Under the pieces are notes generated by a model that was not told the DNA's origin, did not search any database, and saw only the letters and a list, made by a program, of their open reading frames with translations. A program made the position numbers and the translations under genes. Below are positions 5,682-64,000 of a DNA stretch of 64,000 nt, in pieces. The stretch is from an uncultured bacterium (lineage in GTDB: Bacteria; Patescibacteriota; JACMRA01), in contig CAWAQU010000007.1 of the NCBI GenBank assembly GCA_963784355.1, positions 1 to 64,000 of the forward strand. The letters are read 5' to 3'. Numbering within the stretch: position 1 is the stretch's first letter; every line of letters starts with the position of its first letter.

Positions 5682-6423
5682 ATGAAAGAAGGATTAGGAT
5701 TTGGTGTTAAAAATTTAGGATCTCGTATTAGCACTGATACGAAAAAGCAAGATCTAAAACCTGTTTACGGTCAAGAAAGAATGCACCAAAAGAATAACCA
5801 TCCTATTAATTTAGTTAAACAATTAACAAAAAAAGAAGAAATATCTAGAAAAACTGAGGAGTTCTCAAATTTATATAATGAATTATTTTCCAAAATTATT
5901 ACTGTAAATGGTGAGTATAAAAATGTTGAAGAAGTTATTTCAAATAAGCTATCTGAAATAGCGGTTGATCTTGATGAAACATGGGTTGTTCTGAAAAATA
6001 GTCAACTAATTAGTTTGCATATTGATATTTTAAATCATATTAAAAAAAAGGAAAGACTAAAAAATGAATATGTAGCTTTTGTTAACAACTTTTTTTATTT
6101 CAGTACTGGGATTTCGGTTACAAAAGAGTCTTCAGTTAAAGATTGTGAATTTAGTAGCTTATATATTAAAGTATTTGTACTTGTTAGTGTACTGTATAAT
6201 ATAATTGATTATAAAGAGTTTACGAGTCATTCGCTATCAAAACTCAGTTTCTTAAAAAATGCGGACGACAAAAGTAAACTTTTCAATATAGTGGACTATC
6301 TCTACAGGTTATTTTATCTTATAAATGAAGTTAGCAAACTAGCCACTCACCAGTCTTTTAAAAAATCTGTTTTGCACGAAACAGCAAGGGGGTTTGCTAA
6401 AGCTAAGCAAGTTTATCTAACAA
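5682..6423 (+). pseudogene. 5' part of an IS-interrupted hypothetical gene (start uncertain, 5682 or 5781)
   Basis: Reads in frame with 7748-9198 once the IS and one target duplication are removed. Confidence 0.8.
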
Positions 6424-55609: not shown

Positions 55610-56032
55610 TTGACAATATCAAGCGTACGGAGCAATCTCTATTTAGTCAAGTTTATGGATTCAGTGGAGTACACATTGATGTTGCAGCGTATTTTATTTC
55701 TTTTGTTTGGGGCAAGTTTTGTGGGCTTAGCTTGCGTGTTAGTCTTTTTGAATCCTTTTCAAAGTGGATTATACATAATTTTATTTTTACTGGGAAGTGT
55801 ATTGTTTTTATTTAGTGCCGCTAATTTGCTAATTTTTTGGTGGATCTATTCGATAAAAAAAGTTATTTTGACAATAGTTCAGGTGAATCGTATTGTGTAC
55901 CAAGGCTTGATATCGAGTCTAGTAGCTATATTTTATTTGATAATGTATCAGACTGGCGCATTAAATATCTGGTCCGGTGCAATAGTTTTTATTGTTTATT
56001 TTTTGTACGAACTATGGATAAATTCCGGTTAA
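55610..56032 (+). CDS. Hypothetical 4-TM membrane protein (start uncertain)
   Basis: Four hydrophobic segments. Confidence 0.6.
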   Translation: MTISSVRSNLYLVKFMDSVEYTLMLQRILFLLFGASFVGLACVLVFLNPFQSGLYIILFLLGSVLFLFSAANLLIFWWIYSIKKVILTIVQVNRIVYQGLISSLVAIFYLIMYQTGALNIWSGAIVFIVYFLYELWINSG

Positions 56033-56035
56033 CTT

Positions 56036-56713
56036 ATGGCTTTAAATCAACCAAATCAATATCAACCAAATCCCTTTAATTATGTCTATCAAACACGGGA
56101 ACGCCGTAGGCCCATAAATTTACTCGAGTGGGCTCTTATATGTGTATCGATTCTAAGTCTTGTAGGAATTTTTTGGTGGGGATTTAATAATCAAGAAACA
56201 AAAAATAGAGATAATCAAAGATTGCATGATATAAATCAGATTACCATTGCTTTAGAAGAGTTTTATAAAAATAGTAATATTGTTCCAAGTAATAGATCAT
56301 ATCCAAAAGCAAAATGTTCTGAATCATTAAATGAAGTGGACTACGAAGATACTCTAAGAAGAGCTTTAACCGGAAATGCAAAGGAGCTTGATACGCACGT
56401 GTATATAAATCCAAATGATTTTCCTATAGATCAGTGGGGATCGTACTCAGTTACTTTTGGAGAAAGGGTAGTACCATATAGATGTACTGAAAAATTGAGT
56501 TTAAAATCTTCACCTGAAGGAGTAACAAAAATCTACAATGACAGTTTTCCAAGCTGCAATTTTAGTTCAACCAAAAGGTACTATAAGTGTTATATTTACA
56601 CTAGTAGTAATAATGGTGATACTTTTAAAATTGGGTACTATCAGGAATCATCGAACAATTTTATTATTTATAAAAAGTTTAGGGATGATAAAATTCAAGT
56701 TGAAATCAATTGA
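56036..56713 (+). CDS. Type IV pilin/GspG-like pseudopilin
   Basis: RRRP/INLLE hydrophobic N-helix, RDNQRLHDINQITIALEEFY, Cys pairs. Confidence 0.7.
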   Translation: MALNQPNQYQPNPFNYVYQTRERRRPINLLEWALICVSILSLVGIFWWGFNNQETKNRDNQRLHDINQITIALEEFYKNSNIVPSNRSYPKAKCSESLNEVDYEDTLRRALTGNAKELDTHVYINPNDFPIDQWGSYSVTFGERVVPYRCTEKLSLKSSPEGVTKIYNDSFPSCNFSSTKRYYKCYIYTSSNNGDTFKIGYYQESSNNFIIYKKFRDDKIQVEIN

Positions 56714-56734
56714 TAATACAATAATTTATTAATC

Positions 56735-57454
56735 TTAAGCAGATTGGTTTGTAATTTCAGGCTTTAAACTTATGATAGCAAGGAACATGGCCGCTTCAAA
56801 CAATAAACCAATTATTAAAACAAATATAAACCAGCTTAAGATATCTTGAGAACCGAATAATGCAGTAAGTACAATAATTGCAAAATATATCTCTTTTCTC
56901 TTTGACTTTAAAGTACTGGCTGAAACAATTTTCATTTTAATAAGACCAAATACAACTGTAGGTATTTGAAAAAACAAAATTGTGAATAGTGCGAGTGAAA
57001 AAACAAAGTTAGAGTATTCTGTTGAGGTAATTAAAAAACTAGTATTTTTGGGAGCGAAGTTGATTAAAAAGTCAAATGTGCTAGGAATTAAAGAAAAATA
57101 TGCATAGACCAGTGCTATAACTGTAAGGATTAGAGTACTTCCGCTATAATAATAAATTAACTTTTTTTCTTTTTCATTAAGTGCTTGAGCAATATAGCCC
57201 CAAAATATACTTACCAGAATAGGTAGAGTTATAATAGCGCCGGACAATACAACAACTTTAATCACAAAATTAAAGCTATCAGCCGGGGACAAAAAGTGAA
57301 GACTAAGGCCTTTACTTCTTAATGGCATTGTAAAAATATCTATCAGTCTATCAGTATTAAAAGCAGCTATTAGGCTACCAAGTCCCCAAACTATAGCTAT
57401 TTTTATTATTATTTTTTTTAAATCGTTTATATGCTCCCAAATATTTTCAGCCAT
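56735..57454 (-). CDS. tatC: Twin-arginine translocase TatC (divergent)
   Basis: WEHINDLK, SPADSF..VIKV, WGYIAQALNEKEK, FQIP, LKSKRK, LFE; six TMs. Confidence 0.88.
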   Translation of the reverse strand: MAENIWEHINDLKKIIIKIAIVWGLGSLIAAFNTDRLIDIFTMPLRSKGLSLHFLSPADSFNFVIKVVVLSGAIITLPILVSIFWGYIAQALNEKEKKLIYYYSGSTLILTVIALVYAYFSLIPSTFDFLINFAPKNTSFLITSTEYSNFVFSLALFTILFFQIPTVVFGLIKMKIVSASTLKSKRKEIYFAIIVLTALFGSQDILSWFIFVLIIGLLFEAAMFLAIISLKPEITNQSA

Positions 57455-57669
57455 ATTGTGGTTATAATGTTAAATCACCTTTTCTAACTATCACGGTTTA
57501 CTTATGTTTACTACAGTAATAATTTTGAAAGAAATACTCAATGATGCAATTAAGCAAAATACTTACAATCCAGGATGTTACCTTAGGGGCTTTGATGTCT
57601 ATACCACTATCTTGATATACATATCTGTAGCCCCCAAATGGTTCACCTGGAATAATAAATAAGTTGAAT

Positions 57670-60069
57670 TTATAATCCTGCTTTATCCAGACGACCCTGT
57701 AATGCTTCAATAACCTGGTCTTGTTTTTCTAACAAACTCTTCTGTTCCTTTACTGCCTCGACTAAAGCTCCAACCAAACCATTGTAATTAACTGATTTAG
57801 TTTGATCTTTATCAGCTGCTGTTTTAACTGCTTCTGGAAATATTTTTTCTACGTCTTGAGCTAAGAGTCCGATTTGAGTAGATGTATCTTCACCATGATT
57901 TTCAGGATTTTTCCAGGTGTAGGTTACTCCTTTAAGAGAAGCAATTTTATCTAAGGCTGAAGTAATTGGTTTGATATTAGTTTTTAGCCTTTCATCAGAG
58001 TTTGGAGTAATAGTTCCAGTAGCTAAAATATTACCTACTACGTGAAGTTTTTCGGTAGGAGCCTCAGTTCCAATACCAAATTTTCCATCTGGAGTAATTG
58101 TAGGTTGCGCGCGCAGGTAAATAATACGAGAAGACGTTCCCCAGCTTACTCCTGGTCCTAACTCTGGTGCGTGCCAAGCTACATATAAGGGTTGTCCTGC
58201 TGAATTCCAACCTGTTGCATATTTTGTAATTGCAATATCTCTTACTGAATTAGCAGCTTTTTGGAATTTACACCATACCTCATAAAGGTTAGATGTATTG
58301 GTTTGACCATTACAAGTAACAATATCTTCAGTAGATTCAAACTCACAACCATAAAAGGTGATTGATCCACCCCAAGCTGTAAACAATGCAGCTTTATCCG
58401 ATCTAGGAGATAGGGGGCGAGTATCGTTAGCACTTTCAACTACCTTCACACTTTCTAAATTAAAATATGCATAATCCCTTACCAGTACTCTAGAAACCTC
58501 CCGGTAAATTCCATTAAGGGAGCCAACATATTGTTGCATATCAAATGTGTAAGTTGCATTCTTAGTCATTTTGATTACAGGCATGGATCCACTTTGCTCA
58601 GGATTTTTCCTAATGTACAAATATTGTTCAGGAGATAAATCAACAAAAGTATTCCAGGTGTACTCAGAATTAGTTTTTAAATACACTGTTAGTATAGCAT
58701 ATTTTTTTAAAAGCTTATTGATTTGTAAACCGAGATCCGTAGCTGTATCGTTAATAATTACTAATTTACTAGCCCATCTGGATTTGAGAAAATCAGCACT
58801 ACTATTTAGGCTAACAATAGGAGCTCTTCCTTTAGTAATACTTGCCAAGTTGCCTATATCAATATTTGCTTCACTGCTGATACCAATAGGGCTCATGATG
58901 CCACTGTATGAAGTTTGGGAACTATAGGAATTACTATCATCCCATATCGTCAGACCGTTATTTGATTTATATATCTTATATTGGGTACCGGCTGGAATAT
59001 TTTGCTGGTAATTAAAAGGAGAATCAACGATAACTTCAGTATCAGAGTTAATACTCACAATACGGCGCGTGGAATAGATTACCCCTGCATCAGTAACTTT
59101 TGCTCCAGGACTAGTAAACCATGGAGTAGTATCTGTGTTTAATAGTACTTCTATAGTATCACCAATTTCTACTTCGCTTAAAAATTTAGTACCTGCACCA
59201 ATGACTTTTTCCCATGATGTACTTACTGTACCAGAGACGTTAGGATTACTTTCAAGATTGAATTCCAATCCACTATTAGATACAGGCTCTCCAACAGATA
59301 AATTACCTGATGCACCAACAACAACTTTGCTTTTACCGTCAAATCCTTCAAATCCAGCAACAATGCCGGTATAGGTAAAGGCTCTGGCAGTACTATATCC
59401 ATTTGGAATATATTCATAGGCTGAGTTAGTTACATTTAAATTCCACTCACTTTGTTTATCGGATCCGTAATTACCAATCAAGCCGCGTGACATTTGCCCT
59501 GTACTTCCATTTAAGGAAATAAGTTGGGTAGTTTGATTAGAGATTACTATTAAATAACCAGCTTTTAATTGATTAAGATTATTGCCACTGATGTCTGCAC
59601 CACTTGTAGTAATTGTACCAGGTCCTGTAGCTTTGGTGCCATAAAATGGTTGATTAATAAAAGCTTCAGTGTTACTAATCACTTTTGTAATAATTCTAGA
59701 CTGTCCACCAGAGGTGATTACTGCTCCAGGCTGCAATTCTTCAACAAACTTTGTGCCCGTACCAATCAGTTTGATATCATCAGAAGTAACTTGTCCTGTT
59801 CCAGTACGCTGGTTTTGGATACTTTCCGCACGTTTTGTTGAATCAAAATTAACCCACTGGGTTCCGCTCCAGCGTTCAATCTTTCCAGTGTCGGAATTTA
59901 TTCCAGTAAGACCTTCGTTATCGGCTCCAAGTCCGGTTGGCCTATTAGTAATTGACCAGATGTTGATACCACCTTTATTTGGATCACTAATTTGTTTTAA
60001 ATAATCGTTTAAGATTTGTCCCCAGTTTCCATTGTCTTGACCGGGAATTGGTAAGCGTTTTGTTGGCAT
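57670..60069 (-). CDS. Tail-fibre-like trimeric protein with a C-terminal peptidase S74 intramolecular chaperone
   Basis: N-terminal RLPIPGQDNGNWGQILNDYL. GTGTKF/GAGTKF repeats. GIGTEAP.EKLHV.G. SDERLKTNI...GLLAQDVE..FPE.V...VNY plus coiled coil. Confidence 0.88.
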   Translation of the reverse strand: MPTKRLPIPGQDNGNWGQILNDYLKQISDPNKGGINIWSITNRPTGLGADNEGLTGINSDTGKIERWSGTQWVNFDSTKRAESIQNQRTGTGQVTSDDIKLIGTGTKFVEELQPGAVITSGGQSRIITKVISNTEAFINQPFYGTKATGPGTITTSGADISGNNLNQLKAGYLIVISNQTTQLISLNGSTGQMSRGLIGNYGSDKQSEWNLNVTNSAYEYIPNGYSTARAFTYTGIVAGFEGFDGKSKVVVGASGNLSVGEPVSNSGLEFNLESNPNVSGTVSTSWEKVIGAGTKFLSEVEIGDTIEVLLNTDTTPWFTSPGAKVTDAGVIYSTRRIVSINSDTEVIVDSPFNYQQNIPAGTQYKIYKSNNGLTIWDDSNSYSSQTSYSGIMSPIGISSEANIDIGNLASITKGRAPIVSLNSSADFLKSRWASKLVIINDTATDLGLQINKLLKKYAILTVYLKTNSEYTWNTFVDLSPEQYLYIRKNPEQSGSMPVIKMTKNATYTFDMQQYVGSLNGIYREVSRVLVRDYAYFNLESVKVVESANDTRPLSPRSDKAALFTAWGGSITFYGCEFESTEDIVTCNGQTNTSNLYEVWCKFQKAANSVRDIAITKYATGWNSAGQPLYVAWHAPELGPGVSWGTSSRIIYLRAQPTITPDGKFGIGTEAPTEKLHVVGNILATGTITPNSDERLKTNIKPITSALDKIASLKGVTYTWKNPENHGEDTSTQIGLLAQDVEKIFPEAVKTAADKDQTKSVNYNGLVGALVEAVKEQKSLLEKQDQVIEALQGRLDKAGL

Positions 60070-60725
60070 ATATAATATATATTTTTTATATTTGTTTAAT
60101 TAATTATATACTACTTTTTTAAAGTGTGCAAGTCATAATTAAGATTTTATATTAATAACAAATTTTAAAGCATTTAGTCTTCGATAAAGCCCGTAATACC
60201 TATATAAATAGCAAATAGATACAGGGCTAATTAGATAAATTTTATCTTAAACATAGTATACAAAATATTTCAACTTTGCTAAATTTTACATAAAATATTG
60301 TTATATTCTATTGAATAAATTTGATATTTAATTACAGATATAATTTTTGTAATTTCTTTTTACCTTATGTAAAATATTGTTATTTACCGGATGAATTTTT
60401 TAGGTATACTCGTCTAATAACAATTCCTGCCTCGATAGGGTTTTAGTTTGATTTAGGAATGGTTTATCCGCAGCTGAGTTTGACTAACAGCGATTGTACA
60501 TTTGGCCGATTTATTAGTAGTTCAGAATACGTGGTTGCTTGCAACGAGGTTAAAACTGTAAGTTTTTGTTTCCAAAGCTTGCTTTGGTGCTTTGATTAAA
60601 CTTATTATGTATTCGCTACCTTTTTATAAGAAAGATATTAAAATAAAATGACAGAGTGACCGTTGCAAAAGCTAAAGTTGTCTTTTATGCTAAATTTAAA
60701 ATTACAAATTACAAGCTAGACAAAA

Positions 60726-60750
60726 GAATACAACCCACGTGGGGTTGTAC
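60726..60750 (-). terminator. Hairpin downstream of the 60811-61569 gene
   Basis: TACAACCC-ACGTG-GGGTTGTA. Confidence 0.5.
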
Positions 60751-60810
60751 TTGCTTTACCTTATAACGATTTGTTATAAATTAGAAGATTATAAAAGAAT
60801 GAAAAAACTA

Positions 60811-61569
60811 TTACTTTATCTTTATATTGTTTACGCTTTTGTTCCTATTTTTTGACACAAAGAACATTATTCCAAGAACGCCTATAAATAACAAACCTAA
60901 TAATAATATTGACCCTCCTCCTGTCCTCACCGTATCTAATATGGGTTGAATTTTGGCAACATTAACTGTGCTAGCAGTATTTACTAACTCACCATTACCT
61001 AATTTAGCTTTTACAGGTATGGATTGTCCTGCAGTACTTCCTGTACTTACGTTAGTACATACAATATTGTTATTCTCAAGTGTGCAGTTATTACTTAAAT
61101 TTGCGTCACCTATTGATATTCTTAATGGATTGGATGGATCAAGTGTTTTACCTGCGGGTAATTGACCTGTACAAGTAGTCGTTGTATTTACTACTAAATT
61201 ACTACCACAAGTGAAAACTAGAGTTGAAAGGTCCGCATCAGTTATGTAAACATTGCAGTCTCTATTATAAAAACTTTGATTATATTGGCCACAGCCATAA
61301 CCAGAAATTACAGATTGATTGGCACCTGCATTTTCAAGTTGCTTGTAATAAAAAAATCCGCCAAAAGCTCCTAATATAATTGTTAGTAAAATGAAAAAGG
61401 AAACAGAAGTTTTATTCTTTTGCCAATATTGTTTCATTTTTGGAGTTAAGCTTAGGGCCTTTTGTTTCAACATATCAACAAAGAGTAAGGAAGTTGAATC
61501 TTTTTTTGACTTATTTTGGTTGCTTTTTAGCGATTTTTTTAAATCTCGCTTTGGATTTTCACTTTTCAT
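60811..61569 (-). CDS. Membrane protein with N-terminal TM, GYGCGQY motif, Cys-containing Ig-like domain and C-terminal VRTGG-TM-basic tail
   Basis: Two hydrophobic segments; DTVRTGG followed by TM and KNRNK resembles an LPxTG-type sorting signal. Confidence 0.7.
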   Translation of the reverse strand: MKSENPKRDLKKSLKSNQNKSKKDSTSLLFVDMLKQKALSLTPKMKQYWQKNKTSVSFFILLTIILGAFGGFFYYKQLENAGANQSVISGYGCGQYNQSFYNRDCNVYITDADLSTLVFTCGSNLVVNTTTTCTGQLPAGKTLDPSNPLRISIGDANLSNNCTLENNNIVCTNVSTGSTAGQSIPVKAKLGNGELVNTASTVNVAKIQPILDTVRTGGGSILLLGLLFIGVLGIMFFVSKNRNKSVNNIKIK

Positions 61570-61652
61570 AATAATTGCTTTTGTTTTTATTAACTATAAT
61601 AATCTTTAATTAATTTTAGTTGTGTATTTGATGAAGTGTTAAAAACTAAATA

Positions 61653-61847
61653 TTAATTTTTATCTTTATTTATAGTTTTCTCAGTATTACTGCCTAATGA
61701 TTCTTGAGTATCAGCAAGCTCTTTTTTAAAAGATTTAAATGCTTTACCTAAGCTTCCTGCTGTTTCTGGTAATTTATCTTTACCAAAGAATACTATAGCT
61801 AGAAAGCCTATAATTAGTAGTTCTGGTATACTTGGTCTTGGGAACAT
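61653..61847 (-). CDS. tatA: TatA (copy 2)
   Basis: PELLII..AIVFFGKDKLPETAGSLGKAFKSFKKE. Confidence 0.92.
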   Translation of the reverse strand: MFPRPSIPELLIIGFLAIVFFGKDKLPETAGSLGKAFKSFKKELADTQESLGSNTEKTINKDKN

Positions 61848-61870
61848 AATAAACACTTAATTAAATTATT

Positions 61871-62041
61871 TTATATCCCATATGGTGTTTGTCCATAACC
61901 GGAAGTTGATTTAGATTTATCTTTTTCAAGATTTTTACTAAATAGTGTATTGATACCGCCGGTAGCAAAAACTACAAAGAACCCGGTTAAGATTTTCAAA
62001 AAACTTCTTCTGCTTATTTTTTTTGTTTGTGTGCTTGACAT
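61871..62041 (-). CDS. 56-aa stand-alone twin-arginine signal micro-protein (not in the ORF track)
   Basis: Hand translation: MSSTQTKKISRRSFLKILTGFFVVFATGGINTLFSKNLEKDKSKSTSGYGQTPYGI*. Exact S-R-R-x-F-L-K plus h-region, lying between two tatA genes. Confidence 0.85.
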   Translation of the reverse strand: MSSTQTKKISRRSFLKILTGFFVVFATGGINTLFSKNLEKDKSKSTSGYGQTPYGI

Positions 62042-62077
62042 AAATATTTGTTTTTTGTTTGTGTGCTTGATTTATTA

Positions 62078-62317
62078 TTACTTAGCTAACTCTTTTGCAG
62101 AGTCTGCATTAATGCCTGCTTCTACTTTACTGTTATTTGATTTAGCTTCATTGATTTGATGTCCTAATGATTCTTGAGTATCAGCAAGCTCTTTTTTAAA
62201 AGATTTAAATGCTTTACCTAAGCTTCCTGCTGTTTCTGGTAATTTATCTTTACCAAAGAATACTATAGCTAGAAAGCCTATAATTAGTAGTTCTGGTATA
62301 CTTGGTCTTGGGAACAT
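62078..62317 (-). CDS. tatA: TatA (copy 1)
   Basis: Same FG..KLP / FKK motifs with a longer C-terminal tail. Confidence 0.92.
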   Translation of the reverse strand: MFPRPSIPELLIIGFLAIVFFGKDKLPETAGSLGKAFKSFKKELADTQESLGHQINEAKSNNSKVEAGINADSAKELAK

Positions 62318-62400
62318 AATTGTATATTGTTATTTGTTTTTGTTAGTGTAAATTTACACCTATAGTAATATTATAACTCAGTTTTTTTGTTTATGCAAGT

Positions 62401-63999
62401 TTACTGTATTTTTACAGTCTTCTCTTGAGAAAAGCTTATACTATCAAGAGTTTTCAGAGATTGTATTGTGGATTTAGGGGATTTGAACTCTCCTTTATTT
62501 ATAACTCTTGCATAAAATACGATTGGTCCCTTACTCTCTTTACCAATACAAAAGCTTGTTTTTTGATTGTCGGTACTATATGGGTACCAGACTTCTTTGC
62601 TGTAAACCCATGCATCTCCGGGTGTTTTTGAGGTAGTTTTTAAGCCTGCAGGTAAATAGATAGAGGCTTCATAACAACTATTGTCGATTTTAGATTGATC
62701 TGCGACATAGTTAGCCTCTACTTTTACTAAATCAGCATCATTTAATGAATTTGTTTCCTTATCATTTTGATAAAATTTTAGATCCAAATTTAAATCTTTA
62801 TTGTTGGTAATGTCTTTGATTGGAGTTTGATAATTTGTAACAATACCTAATTGTCCGCTAATGACTTTTAAATCTAATTTAGCTAGGTCCTGTGAGTTTA
62901 TTTCAATGCTATAACTCTGGTTGTTTTCCAATTTTTTGGAGATATTTTGTTCGTTTTGTTTGAAATTAAATTCAACTTTTTGAGGTTTTTGATAATTTAG
63001 AATTGATTCAATGGTTTCAAGCTCAAGTCCGTAATAAATATTAGTTTTGGGTTGGTTAGCTAAATAGTATCGATATAGGTTTTTTGACTGATCCTCATTT
63101 AATTTTGCTCCAAGCAGGCTTTCAAGAAGAGTGTAATAGCTAATTTCATCAGGACTTTCTCCTATTTTTAAGCTAATGGACCTATCTTCCTTGATTTGAT
63201 ATTTGTTGAGTAAATCAGTGTAAATTTTTCTTGCGGCTTCTTTGTTTTCAGCTTCTATAAAAGCCAGAGCAGTAAATAGTTGCTCTTTAGGTGAAAGGTC
63301 TACAATGCCGGCGACTTCGTTGATTTGATTTAAAGCGTTGTCTTTTAGTTTACTTAAACCATACAATGCAATAATTTTACGTTCTCTAGACTCGTTTGGA
63401 TCAGTAATTACTTTATTTAAATAACTTTTTAGGGTTTCATTTTCAAATTTGTTTTTGCCTATTCCAATTGCATAGACACTTGTTTCCAGGTCTGGTGAGC
63501 TGTAAGGATAAATGGCCCAACCATTTGAAGGATTTTGGTAAAGTGTGTAGTCATTATTTGAGTTAATTGCGGCACTTTGGGTAAAGTATCGGTTTAAAAA
63601 CTCAGTAGAAATGTCTCTAGCAAGTTTTTGATCTAACCTATCGCCTGACTGATTTTGCAACTCGGTAAGTCTTTGGTAATATTCACTGCTTGTTTGGTTT
63701 TGGAAAGTTAGAGCAAGTTTTGTATTGTCAGAAACTTTGAATTTTTGGAGTTCTTCGGGGGTAAAGTACTTGACTTCAGTTTTAGTAATTTGGGGGCTTA
63801 AAACATTTATTTCTCTGGTTAGATTATCTACTTGATCACCTGATTTCGCTGCAATATTGAATTTGTGTTTGCCGATCGGTAAGTTTGGTAGCTCAAAATC
63901 TACCGGGTTGCTGCCTTTTGATTCAACTATCTTGTTTTTAATGTTTAAACTCTCGGAATTTATCGTGAAATTTACAGACTGATCTGCAGGTAAATTTGT
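62401..63999 (-). CDS. Alpha-2-macroglobulin-like protein, C-terminal part (5' end outside the window)
   Basis: Frame is open to the window edge. MG-like beta domain, YQNPSNGWAIYP alpha/alpha barrel, YLPAGL, FYARVINKGEF. Confidence 0.75.
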   Translation of the reverse strand, partial: TNLPADQSVNFTINSESLNIKNKIVESKGSNPVDFELPNLPIGKHKFNIAAKSGDQVDNLTREINVLSPQITKTEVKYFTPEELQKFKVSDNTKLALTFQNQTSSEYYQRLTELQNQSGDRLDQKLARDISTEFLNRYFTQSAAINSNNDYTLYQNPSNGWAIYPYSSPDLETSVYAIGIGKNKFENETLKSYLNKVITDPNESRERKIIALYGLSKLKDNALNQINEVAGIVDLSPKEQLFTALAFIEAENKEAARKIYTDLLNKYQIKEDRSISLKIGESPDEISYYTLLESLLGAKLNEDQSKNLYRYYLANQPKTNIYYGLELETIESILNYQKPQKVEFNFKQNEQNISKKLENNQSYSIEINSQDLAKLDLKVISGQLGIVTNYQTPIKDITNNKDLNLDLKFYQNDKETNSLNDADLVKVEANYVADQSKIDNSCYEASIYLPAGLKTTSKTPGDAWVYSKEVWYPYSTDNQKTSFCIGKESKGPIVFYARVINKGEFKSPKSTIQSLKTLDSISFSQEKTVKIQ

Positions 64000-64000
64000 A

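Follow-up and report, generated by a model that had tools for sequence, protein, structure and literature searches.

How might a phage-type fibre protein that carries no signal peptide reach the surface of a bacterial cell? The question is raised by a cluster of six genes, all on the minus strand between positions 56735 and 62320 (5.6 kb), in a 64,000-nucleotide stretch of a patescibacterial genome (here called the window; positions 1–64000 of contig C7, in an assembly of 1.14 Mb and 13 contigs with 33% guanine plus cytosine (GC) and 81% completeness). It comprises tatA, an open reading frame (ORF) of only 56 amino acids (aa), a second tatA, the gene of a surface protein, a fibre gene and tatC (Table 1). 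Twin-arginine translocation (Tat) carries folded proteins, and can also carry signal-less partners bound to a signal-bearing one. An earlier note on this DNA had proposed that the 56-aa product, hereafter the micro-protein, is a free-standing Tat signal that exports the fibre in trans, and all six genes are indeed present where it had placed them. Our comparison with related genomes leads to a wider reading, on which our confidence is evenly divided: the cluster would be the minimal copy of a conserved module of the Candidate Phyla Radiation (CPR) that places folded tail-fibre-like and tailspike-like proteins on the surface via TatAC, bound to the micro-protein. The genes, their families, their co-occurrence and synteny, and the N-terminal position of a tag shared by the cargo proteins are established. 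As a comparative result drawn from sequence, the module, the tag family and a wall-anchored partner are solid.

A small Tat-type protein, a tagged fibre and a wall-anchored partner

The micro-protein bears SRRSFLK at residues 10–16, followed by an 18-residue hydrophobic stretch (h-region) containing Gly and Thr (mean hydropathy 2.19 in the best 13-residue window), a polar linker and the C-terminal GYGQTPYGI. About 22 residues lie beyond the h-region, no AxA motif is visible and there is no passenger domain, so that the earlier description of a Tat signal joined to a linker and GYGQTPYG holds in all its parts. A scan of the ORFs of the whole genome for RRx, two hydrophobic residues and an h-region, which demanded RR and would let KR or RK signals escape, returned the micro-protein as the sole consensus Tat signal apart from one candidate (C13:3512–3802, minus strand). 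The contig of that second candidate is odd in composition (26.1 kb with 38.5% GC, against 32.5–34.8% in the other 12 contigs) and may be a contaminant or a foreign element.

Judged by its homologues, and by its standing as the only consensus Tat signal outside C13, the 56-aa ORF is a real, conserved gene and not a chance frame. A six-frame search of the 26 other genomes of the order recovered small frames of the same design in ten of them, and an 11-member profile retrieved 34 proteins of 47–106 aa, all unnamed, at E ≤ 0.01 from a collection of 5.8 billion proteins; within the source genome, the micro-protein was the only match of its profile among 4,001 ORFs. Three weaker six-frame matches were excluded from the family, two lying inside longer frames (137 and 361 aa) and one holding a stop codon. 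We also rejected the idea that the tatA duplication had left the ORF behind as a shortened relic of a normal Tat substrate, as full-length homologues of the same size occur in eight families. Members begin with a polar N-terminus; a basic pair precedes x-F-[LIV]-K, and then come a hydrophobic stretch with Gly or Ser, a variable polar linker and G-[YF]-G-x3-Y-G at or near the C-terminus. Residues F14, G50, Y54 and G55 are invariant in the family alignments A1 and A3; across 30 aligned micro-proteins from the eight families this Phe, two residues past the basic pair, and the G..YG do not vary. Scoring of 8,000 candidates brought up no fused longer form, though this is weak evidence, and no match to PF02416 was obtained at E ≤ 0.1, by which the micro-protein is not of the TatA/B type.

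A neighbouring family had already caught the attention of curators. NF038009, named 'twin-arginine translocation system-associated protein' (short name TatB_1) in NCBIfam with no function attached, resembles the micro-proteins in length and layout, aligns with them end to end and, in the genomes sampled, matches only where TatC is present. It differs in that all scores stay below its curated cut-off of 100 bits, with 55–70 bits in seven genomes of six other families, 31 bits in two relatives from the family of the window and 12.5 bits for the window copy. By sequence, we regard the micro-protein as a divergent relative of NF038009, and not as a member by the curated rule; a literature search on NF038009 found no paper. 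TIGR02811, the 'formate dehydrogenase region TAT target', matches the micro-protein weakly (17.8 bits, far below the cut-off of 48.45). It is a small protein (66-position profile) consisting mainly of a Tat signal and a short conserved tail, its presumed partner being encoded beside it; its tail motif and neighbours are unlike those of the micro-protein, and the resemblance is one of design only. Look-alikes in a protein atlas, which we treat as leads only, were unnamed clusters of small proteins, Fe-hydrogenase small subunits with a Tat signal and Rieske N-termini.

The fibre has no hydrophobic N-terminus and opens with a RLPIPGQDNGNWGQILNDYL segment, just as the earlier note had read it. Its assignment as an S74 protein likewise stands (PF13884, 78.2 bits against a cut-off of 22), and its C-terminal 120 aa match PHROG tail-fibre families down to E = 3e-33. 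The first 75–100 residues recur at the extreme start of many proteins in the family of the window, often encoded by tandem genes, with up to 21, 25 and 12 tagged genes per genome; in the source genome, the fibre is the only match of the cargo-tag profile. The recurrence of RLPxPG..WG..LN N-termini, which the earlier note had put forward, proved to be extensive: among 1.84 billion proteins, a 45-position tag profile picked out 6,522 representatives at E ≤ 1e-3, all sharing the first 30–40 residues. In the best 150 of these 6,522, which range from 41 to 1,853 aa, the tag begins at residue 1–3 in 144, follows the consensus RLPIPGxDDGxWGDILNxxL with several positions 95–100% conserved, and is accompanied by a hydrophobic N-terminus in one protein and by any transmembrane (TM)-like segment in two. 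Cluster members of ten tagged proteins are all unnamed or called 'hypothetical protein'. In its position and distribution, the segment behaves like a tag for targeting or docking.

The bodies that follow the tag are S74 fibres and pectate-lyase-like or right-handed beta-helix proteins (PF12708, PF13229), that is, phage fibre and tailspike types. Such proteins are trimeric and, in phage-infected cells, attain both their fold and their trimeric state in the cytoplasm, which would make them suitable for Tat. AlphaFold2 modelled the N-terminal domain of the fibre as a compact alpha+beta fold (mean predicted local distance difference test score 73.7). A fold search of the PDB with this model gave no match at E ≤ 0.001; the best one (E = 0.35) was the TSP3 tailspike of phage CBA120 and the next a hyaluronidase from a streptococcal phage, a hint at most.

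In phages themselves the tag is rare. Among 50,697 phage records, the long form occurs in one Microcoleus phage (OR578706.1) and the short form in five Streptomyces phages (six records), at the N-terminus, or close to it, of proteins that are unnamed or collagen-like. A prophage origin of the cluster was rejected on account of this rarity and of the lack of any further phage gene within the cluster in the ORF list and Pfam scan. In the Streptomyces phages BRock (NC_048650.1, locus 6001–6093) and GiJojo (PP725410.1, 5001–5093), the tagged gene lies in a transfer RNA (tRNA) array, away from the annotated tail genes; since the annotated start in BRock overlaps a tRNA, the true gene start is probably at the tag. 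In a few database proteins (P0035 with 1270 aa, P0037, P0038 and P0102) the tag stands internally in two to four copies, with or without the N-terminal one; gene calls that were fused, repeats or another use of the motif might account for this.

A further part, missed by the earlier note, is the 252-aa surface protein, which on comparative grounds is a conserved member of the module with a related Tyr/Gly motif. It consists of a basic N-terminus, a TM segment, a GYGCGQY..C motif, a domain of about 100 aa and a C-terminal VRTGG followed by a TM segment and a KNRNK tail. A Pfam scan of the protein found no family. Homologues of 437–1204 aa with repeated domains adjoin the micro-protein in G007, G002, G006 and G005, and in 11 loci the conserved neighbour shows a Sec-type signal or TM segment, directly after it the Tyr/Gly motif YGxxxYG or something close to it, in many cases together with two Cys, and at the C-terminus a sorting-type tail. 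These tails (LPTTG, LPVTG, LTNTG or, in the family of the window, [VP]RTGG, each with a TM segment and basic residues) are like those of sortase-anchored LPXTG proteins, from which the window protein departs in that its motif lacks Pro and the LPXTG_anchor model TIGR01167 scores 10.7 bits, below the cut-off of 15.9. The mature part of the wall peptide in G261 is only about 30 residues long, so that the motif is essentially all that is displayed. For the source genome as a whole, we counted 34 occurrences of a loose YG motif in 453,871 ORF residues (7.5e-5 per residue); a sortase fragment broken by a contig end scores 23.9 bits, the cut-off being 26.6.

Endings of the form [IV]R[TS]GG, a hydrophobic stretch and a basic tail were also seen in C7:108608–109036 (minus strand), C12:162363–162512 (plus strand) and C12:36233–36406 (minus strand), and this suggests that [IV]R[TS]GG is a lineage-specific variant of the LPXTG sorting signal. 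The Cys-containing domain of about 100 aa recurs in C7:108608–109036 and in C9:29961–30227 (plus strand).

Co-inheritance with TatC

The comparison took in 27 genomes of the order and, for the phylum, 401 evenly sampled genomes. Within the order, 12 genomes possess TatC, of which ten carry the tag and ten the micro-protein. Among the 15 genomes without TatC, the tag occurs only in G002 (68% complete, micro-protein present) and G022 (72% complete), while the remaining 13, including the sole congener of the source genome, lack TatC, tag and micro-protein alike. In this comparison of gene content within the order, micro-protein, tag and TatC are gained and lost together.

The same association holds at the level of the phylum, where TatC is found in 25 of 401 genomes, 14 of them outside the family of the window (one of the 14 being broken). 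All 11 genomes with an NF038009-like match at E ≤ 1e-4 possess TatC, against none of the 376 genomes without it, and in a subsample of 236 genomes the short-tag profile A4 matched 11, every one TatC-positive. Outside the family of the window, tagged genes are present in nine out of nine genomes with the micro-protein (G102, G130, G151, G187, G247, G261, G288, G326 and G386, from families f11, f29, f47, f86, f103, f108 and f120) and in none of the four TatC-positive genomes that lack it (G029, G081, G324 and G378). The tag thus follows the micro-protein, and not Tat as such. The earlier note had suggested building one profile for the micro-protein and one for the start of the fibre, and testing them for co-occurrence and synteny with tatC; the outcome is clearly positive, with joint recurrence in seven further families. 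As a whole, the interpretation given in that note is supported in part.

Two of the four genomes without the micro-protein deserve separate mention. G029 (C1:706820–721405) encodes at least three near-identical paralogs of 343–354 aa, with a SRREFLKK signal and then a lipobox-like ..AASCG, which is ordinary lipoprotein-type use of Tat in the same phylum. In G324, a 67-aa ORF just upstream of tatA (C3:4888–5091, plus strand) resembles the second half of the fibre N-terminal domain (blastp E = 0.002), and could be what is left of the system or another variant of it.

Gene order points in the same direction. The micro-protein adjoins tatC in G023, G007, G014, G288, G247, G386, G326, G261, G151 and G187; in G005 the tatC beside it is broken. 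The window and G007, G247, G326, G261, G151 and G102 have tagged genes no more than a few kb away from tatC. Paralogs of the micro-protein are furthermore found 7–350 bp upstream of tagged genes, as three pairs in G386 and one pair in G247; two of the three cargo-adjacent paralogs in G386 have altered tails.

TatC is present in a single copy in the source genome. In a TatC tree, 13 genomes with the micro-protein are split by a single change from four without it, on a separating branch that is weakly supported (64/56), with one sequence on a very long branch. TatC proteins of micro-protein genomes outside the family of the window measure 308–397 aa and end in low-complexity basic or Pro-rich tails of 80–150 residues, while those of the family itself have 239–258 aa and no such tail. 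A Tat system of the TatA plus TatC type is recorded in three classes in the part of PMC9166423 available to us.

Possible route to the surface

Taken together, hitchhiking on a signal supplied in trans is the most economical reading: the cargo is signal-less, a Tat-type signal stands alone, it is inherited together with TatC and the cargo tag, and its tail motif is repeated on the wall protein. The functional link between the parts is strongly supported. That the five parts form one functional system we hold to be very probable, and that Tat exports the tagged proteins to be rather probable; for the micro-protein acting as a trans signal that binds the tag, we would give an even chance at best, or slightly less.

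In outline, the cargo would be synthesised without a signal peptide (one S74 fibre here, up to about 25 beta-helix and fibre proteins elsewhere) and would present the common N-terminal tag. The micro-protein, as a free-standing Tat-type signal peptide, would grip this tag in the cytoplasm with its GYGxxxYG tail; TatC would engage the micro-protein, and the cargo would cross as a hitchhiker. Left uncleaved, the micro-protein would stay behind as an N-in/C-out membrane anchor that holds the cargo first, and the sortase-type wall protein, with its like YGxxxYG motif at the mature N-terminus, would be the likely final dock. That the tail binds the tag, that the cargo passes Tat and that the wall protein then takes it over are steps that we infer from the sequences. 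Drawn out in full, the picture is a tentative one that we place below an even chance: a signal peptide encoded by a separate gene would load polymorphic, folded, phage-derived fibres and depolymerase-like tailspikes onto TatAC via a tag of about 30 residues and then pass them to a sortase-anchored peptide with the same motif, thereby arming ultra-small, probably episymbiotic bacteria with phage-type host-binding proteins.

Such a route has relatives in design. In the known Tat hitchhikers (hydrogenase small and large subunits, DmsAB, PaoABC), a signal-less folded partner is likewise thought to be exported while bound to a carrier with a Tat signal; PaoABC is described as a three-component case in the portion of PMC4273604 that we could consult. 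Whereas those carriers are enzyme subunits with a folded domain, the candidate carrier here is a signal and a short tail alone, encoded in the tat operon, for polymorphic non-redox surface proteins that share an N-terminal tag. The module as proposed works like the redox-enzyme pairs and yet is a member of none, since its carrier is domain-less, its cargo consists of polymorphic surface proteins and recognition presumably takes place via a short common tag. Uncleaved Tat anchors such as Rieske proteins, and Tat-inserted membrane proteins, which are known (PMC10924467, as far as its accessible part goes), resemble the micro-protein in having a Tat-type signal, no obvious AxA site and a likely retention in the membrane. 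They carry a functional domain of their own, however, which the micro-protein does not. With phage tail fibres and tailspikes, the cargo shares a bona fide S74 domain and, in other genomes, pectate-lyase-like beta-helices, but its genes lie in the chromosome, form arrays of up to about 25 and are not surrounded by virion genes. N-terminal targeting modules with small cognate adaptors are also known from type VII secretion (LXG or PE/PPE) and from the adaptor/effector pairs of type VI secretion. The likeness to these is in logic only, namely one N-terminal module on unrelated bodies and small partner genes directly upstream of the cargo; there is no relation in sequence, and the machine here is TatAC. 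Our literature search found no description of this module, and a term search of the part of PMC13673990 open to us returned no mention of Patescibacteria or CPR.

Several observations weigh against hitchhiking on the micro-protein. The Pfam TAT_signal model (PF10518) gives it 15.2 bits, below the cut-off of 22.7, and the basic pair, a point that the earlier note had also missed, is relaxed across the 30 aligned micro-proteins (RR in 14, KR in five, RK in seven, KK in two, RQ and CR in one each); in model Tat signals, the twin arginine is essential. The largest cargo has 2,310 aa, and as a trimer it would surpass any Tat substrate known to us. Phage-borne copies of the tag may be a plain attachment piece of the fibre. 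Pairing is imperfect as well: in several genomes from the family of the window, micro-protein and tatC lie on separate contigs, G004 and G011 have TatC and tags with no micro-protein found (both assemblies being incomplete), G013 and G014 have TatC and the micro-protein with no tag found, and copy numbers are far from 1:1, as in G010 with two micro-protein genes and 16–21 tagged genes. Because the genomes are related, the counts are not independent, and about eight families is the fairer number. Prediction of a complex between residues 1–82 of the fibre and the micro-protein tail (residues 27–56) gave an ipSAE of 0.00 in both runs, which, with the controls not folded, speaks neither for binding nor against it.

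Two alternatives keep the module and change the part played by the micro-protein. Tat might insert the micro-protein alone, as an anchor with its tail outside, and fibres exported in some other way would then bind the YG motifs of micro-protein and wall protein. The same co-occurrence and synteny would result, the Tyr/Gly motif on an outward-facing wall protein would be accounted for, very large trimers need not pass Tat, and a tag on phage proteins makes docking more natural than export. Such pure docking, however, requires a second export path for folded proteins that, with the single hydrophobic N-terminus among the best 150 tagged proteins, are signal-less; the loci examined hold no conserved candidate for one, and a tail of 20–30 residues has no obvious need of a folded-protein exporter. 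With no other export route in sight, hitchhiking is favoured, and we consider docking alone unlikely. The micro-protein could instead be a fixed part or primer at the signal site of TatC, TatB-like or a mimic of the signal, and the cargo tag itself would be the signal read by the complex. The NCBIfam label of the related family, the usual position of the gene next to tatC, the relaxed basic pair, which a fixed subunit could tolerate, and the separate branch of TatC in micro-protein genomes would all fit. Yet the micro-protein has no similarity to TatA/B, the conserved YG tail and the YG wall protein would be left without explanation, and the paralogs with variant tails directly upstream of single cargo genes, distant from tatC, fit a cargo-specific adaptor better; on the strength of these cargo-adjacent paralogs, we favour an adaptor and regard a translocase subunit as distinctly improbable.

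More radical readings would dissolve the module. Chance might have brought together a Tat operon, a small ORF that is spurious or in decay, and a tail-fibre gene of prophage origin; the match of the fibre C-terminus to phage tail-fibre families, the tatA duplication, which points to recent rearrangement, and promoter-like sites at chance level could be cited for it. This is contradicted by the comparative data, in which the small ORF is kept with invariant residues in eight families and three parts are gained and lost together, and by the absence of other phage genes from the cluster together with the 12–25 tagged genes of some genomes; we give it hardly any credence. The micro-protein might also be the precursor of a secreted or modified Tyr/Gly peptide, either a signal or a product akin to the ribosomally synthesised and post-translationally modified peptides, with no relation to the fibre. 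Its small size, leader-like N-terminus and conserved C-terminal motif are of that kind, but no modifying enzyme or peptide transporter is conserved in the loci examined, the Tyr/Gly motif is common to the wall-anchored protein, and outside the family of the window the presence of tagged proteins tracks the micro-protein exactly, which leaves this explanation highly improbable.

Tat is rare in these reduced bacteria and, where it is kept, appears in most genomes to be tied to the module and not to redox enzymes. If hitchhiking on the micro-protein is borne out, this would be the first dedicated adaptor that gives a Tat signal in trans, and would offer signal-less phage-like fibres and polysaccharide-degrading beta-helices a route to the surface in cells with no other known exporter of folded proteins. 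The short N-terminal tag would then also mark out a very large family of surface proteins and aid the annotation of thousands of 'hypothetical' proteins, and the module would provide a handle on the host attachment of such cells. Folded proteins might then even be exported by design, with a short tag and a separate carrier peptide.

Cluster layout and neighbouring sequences

Table 1. Positions of genes, domains and other elements of the cluster in the window
Feature	Position	Strand	Basis
tatA copy 1, 79 aa	62078..62317	-	PF02416 TatA_B_E, 51.1 bits (cut-off 21)
Micro-protein, 56 aa	61871..62041	-	ORF; family alignments A1, A3; database homologues
tatA copy 2, 64 aa from ATG	61653..61847	-	PF02416, 52.3 bits (cut-off 21); ORF listing with GTG start begins at 61856
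Perfect direct repeat of 158 nt over the 5' parts of both tatA, copy A (partner at 62163-62320)	61693..61850	.	Repeat search
Surface protein, 252 aa	60811..61569	-	ORF; homologues adjoining the micro-protein elsewhere
Terminator-like hairpin 3' of the surface-protein gene	60727..60751	-	Consensus scan only
Signal-less S74 fibre (putative cargo), 799 aa	57670..60069	-	PF13884, 78.2 bits; PHROG tail-fibre matches
N-terminal tag/domain of the fibre, residues 1-78	59836..60069	-	Alignments A2, A4; AlphaFold2 model
Peptidase_S74 intramolecular chaperone domain, fibre residues 691-749	57823..57999	-	PF13884
tatC, 239 aa	56735..57454	-	PF00902, 136.2 bits (cut-off 25.1; domain positions 1-205 of 208)

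On consensus grounds only, the hairpin that follows the surface-protein gene and the gap before the fibre gene suggest that the cluster consists of two transcription units. The hairpin is two-way in the consensus scan, with a stem of 10 bp including four GC pairs and a T-rich tail after it; the gap (60070–60810) is AT-rich, measures 741 bp and has no ORF that reaches 30 aa on its minus strand. Promoter-like sites were at chance level in the same kind of scan (27 found against 27.3 expected), and an Rfam scan of positions 56000–64000 matched no family. A search of a sequencing-run index listed no RNA run as containing the stretch; one soil-metagenome DNA run contained 0.11 of its words, and five short contigs (151–196 nt) map there, none spanning the tatA repeat.

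The two tatA genes share their 5' 158 nt at 100% identity and a spacing of 470 nt, which places the micro-protein ORF inside a tandem tatA duplication. Recent duplication with gene conversion may have produced this repeat, or else it is an effect of assembly. The two TatA proteins differ in their C-terminal tails only, relatives have one tatA per such locus, and a direct repeat of 20 nt runs across the start of the micro-protein ORF (62019–62038 and 62051–62070). Directly upstream of the cluster, a large protein of at least 532 aa, to which no Pfam or NCBIfam family could be assigned, is encoded at 62401–63999 (minus strand) and runs off the window; a protein weakly similar to it is encoded near a micro-protein locus in G010.

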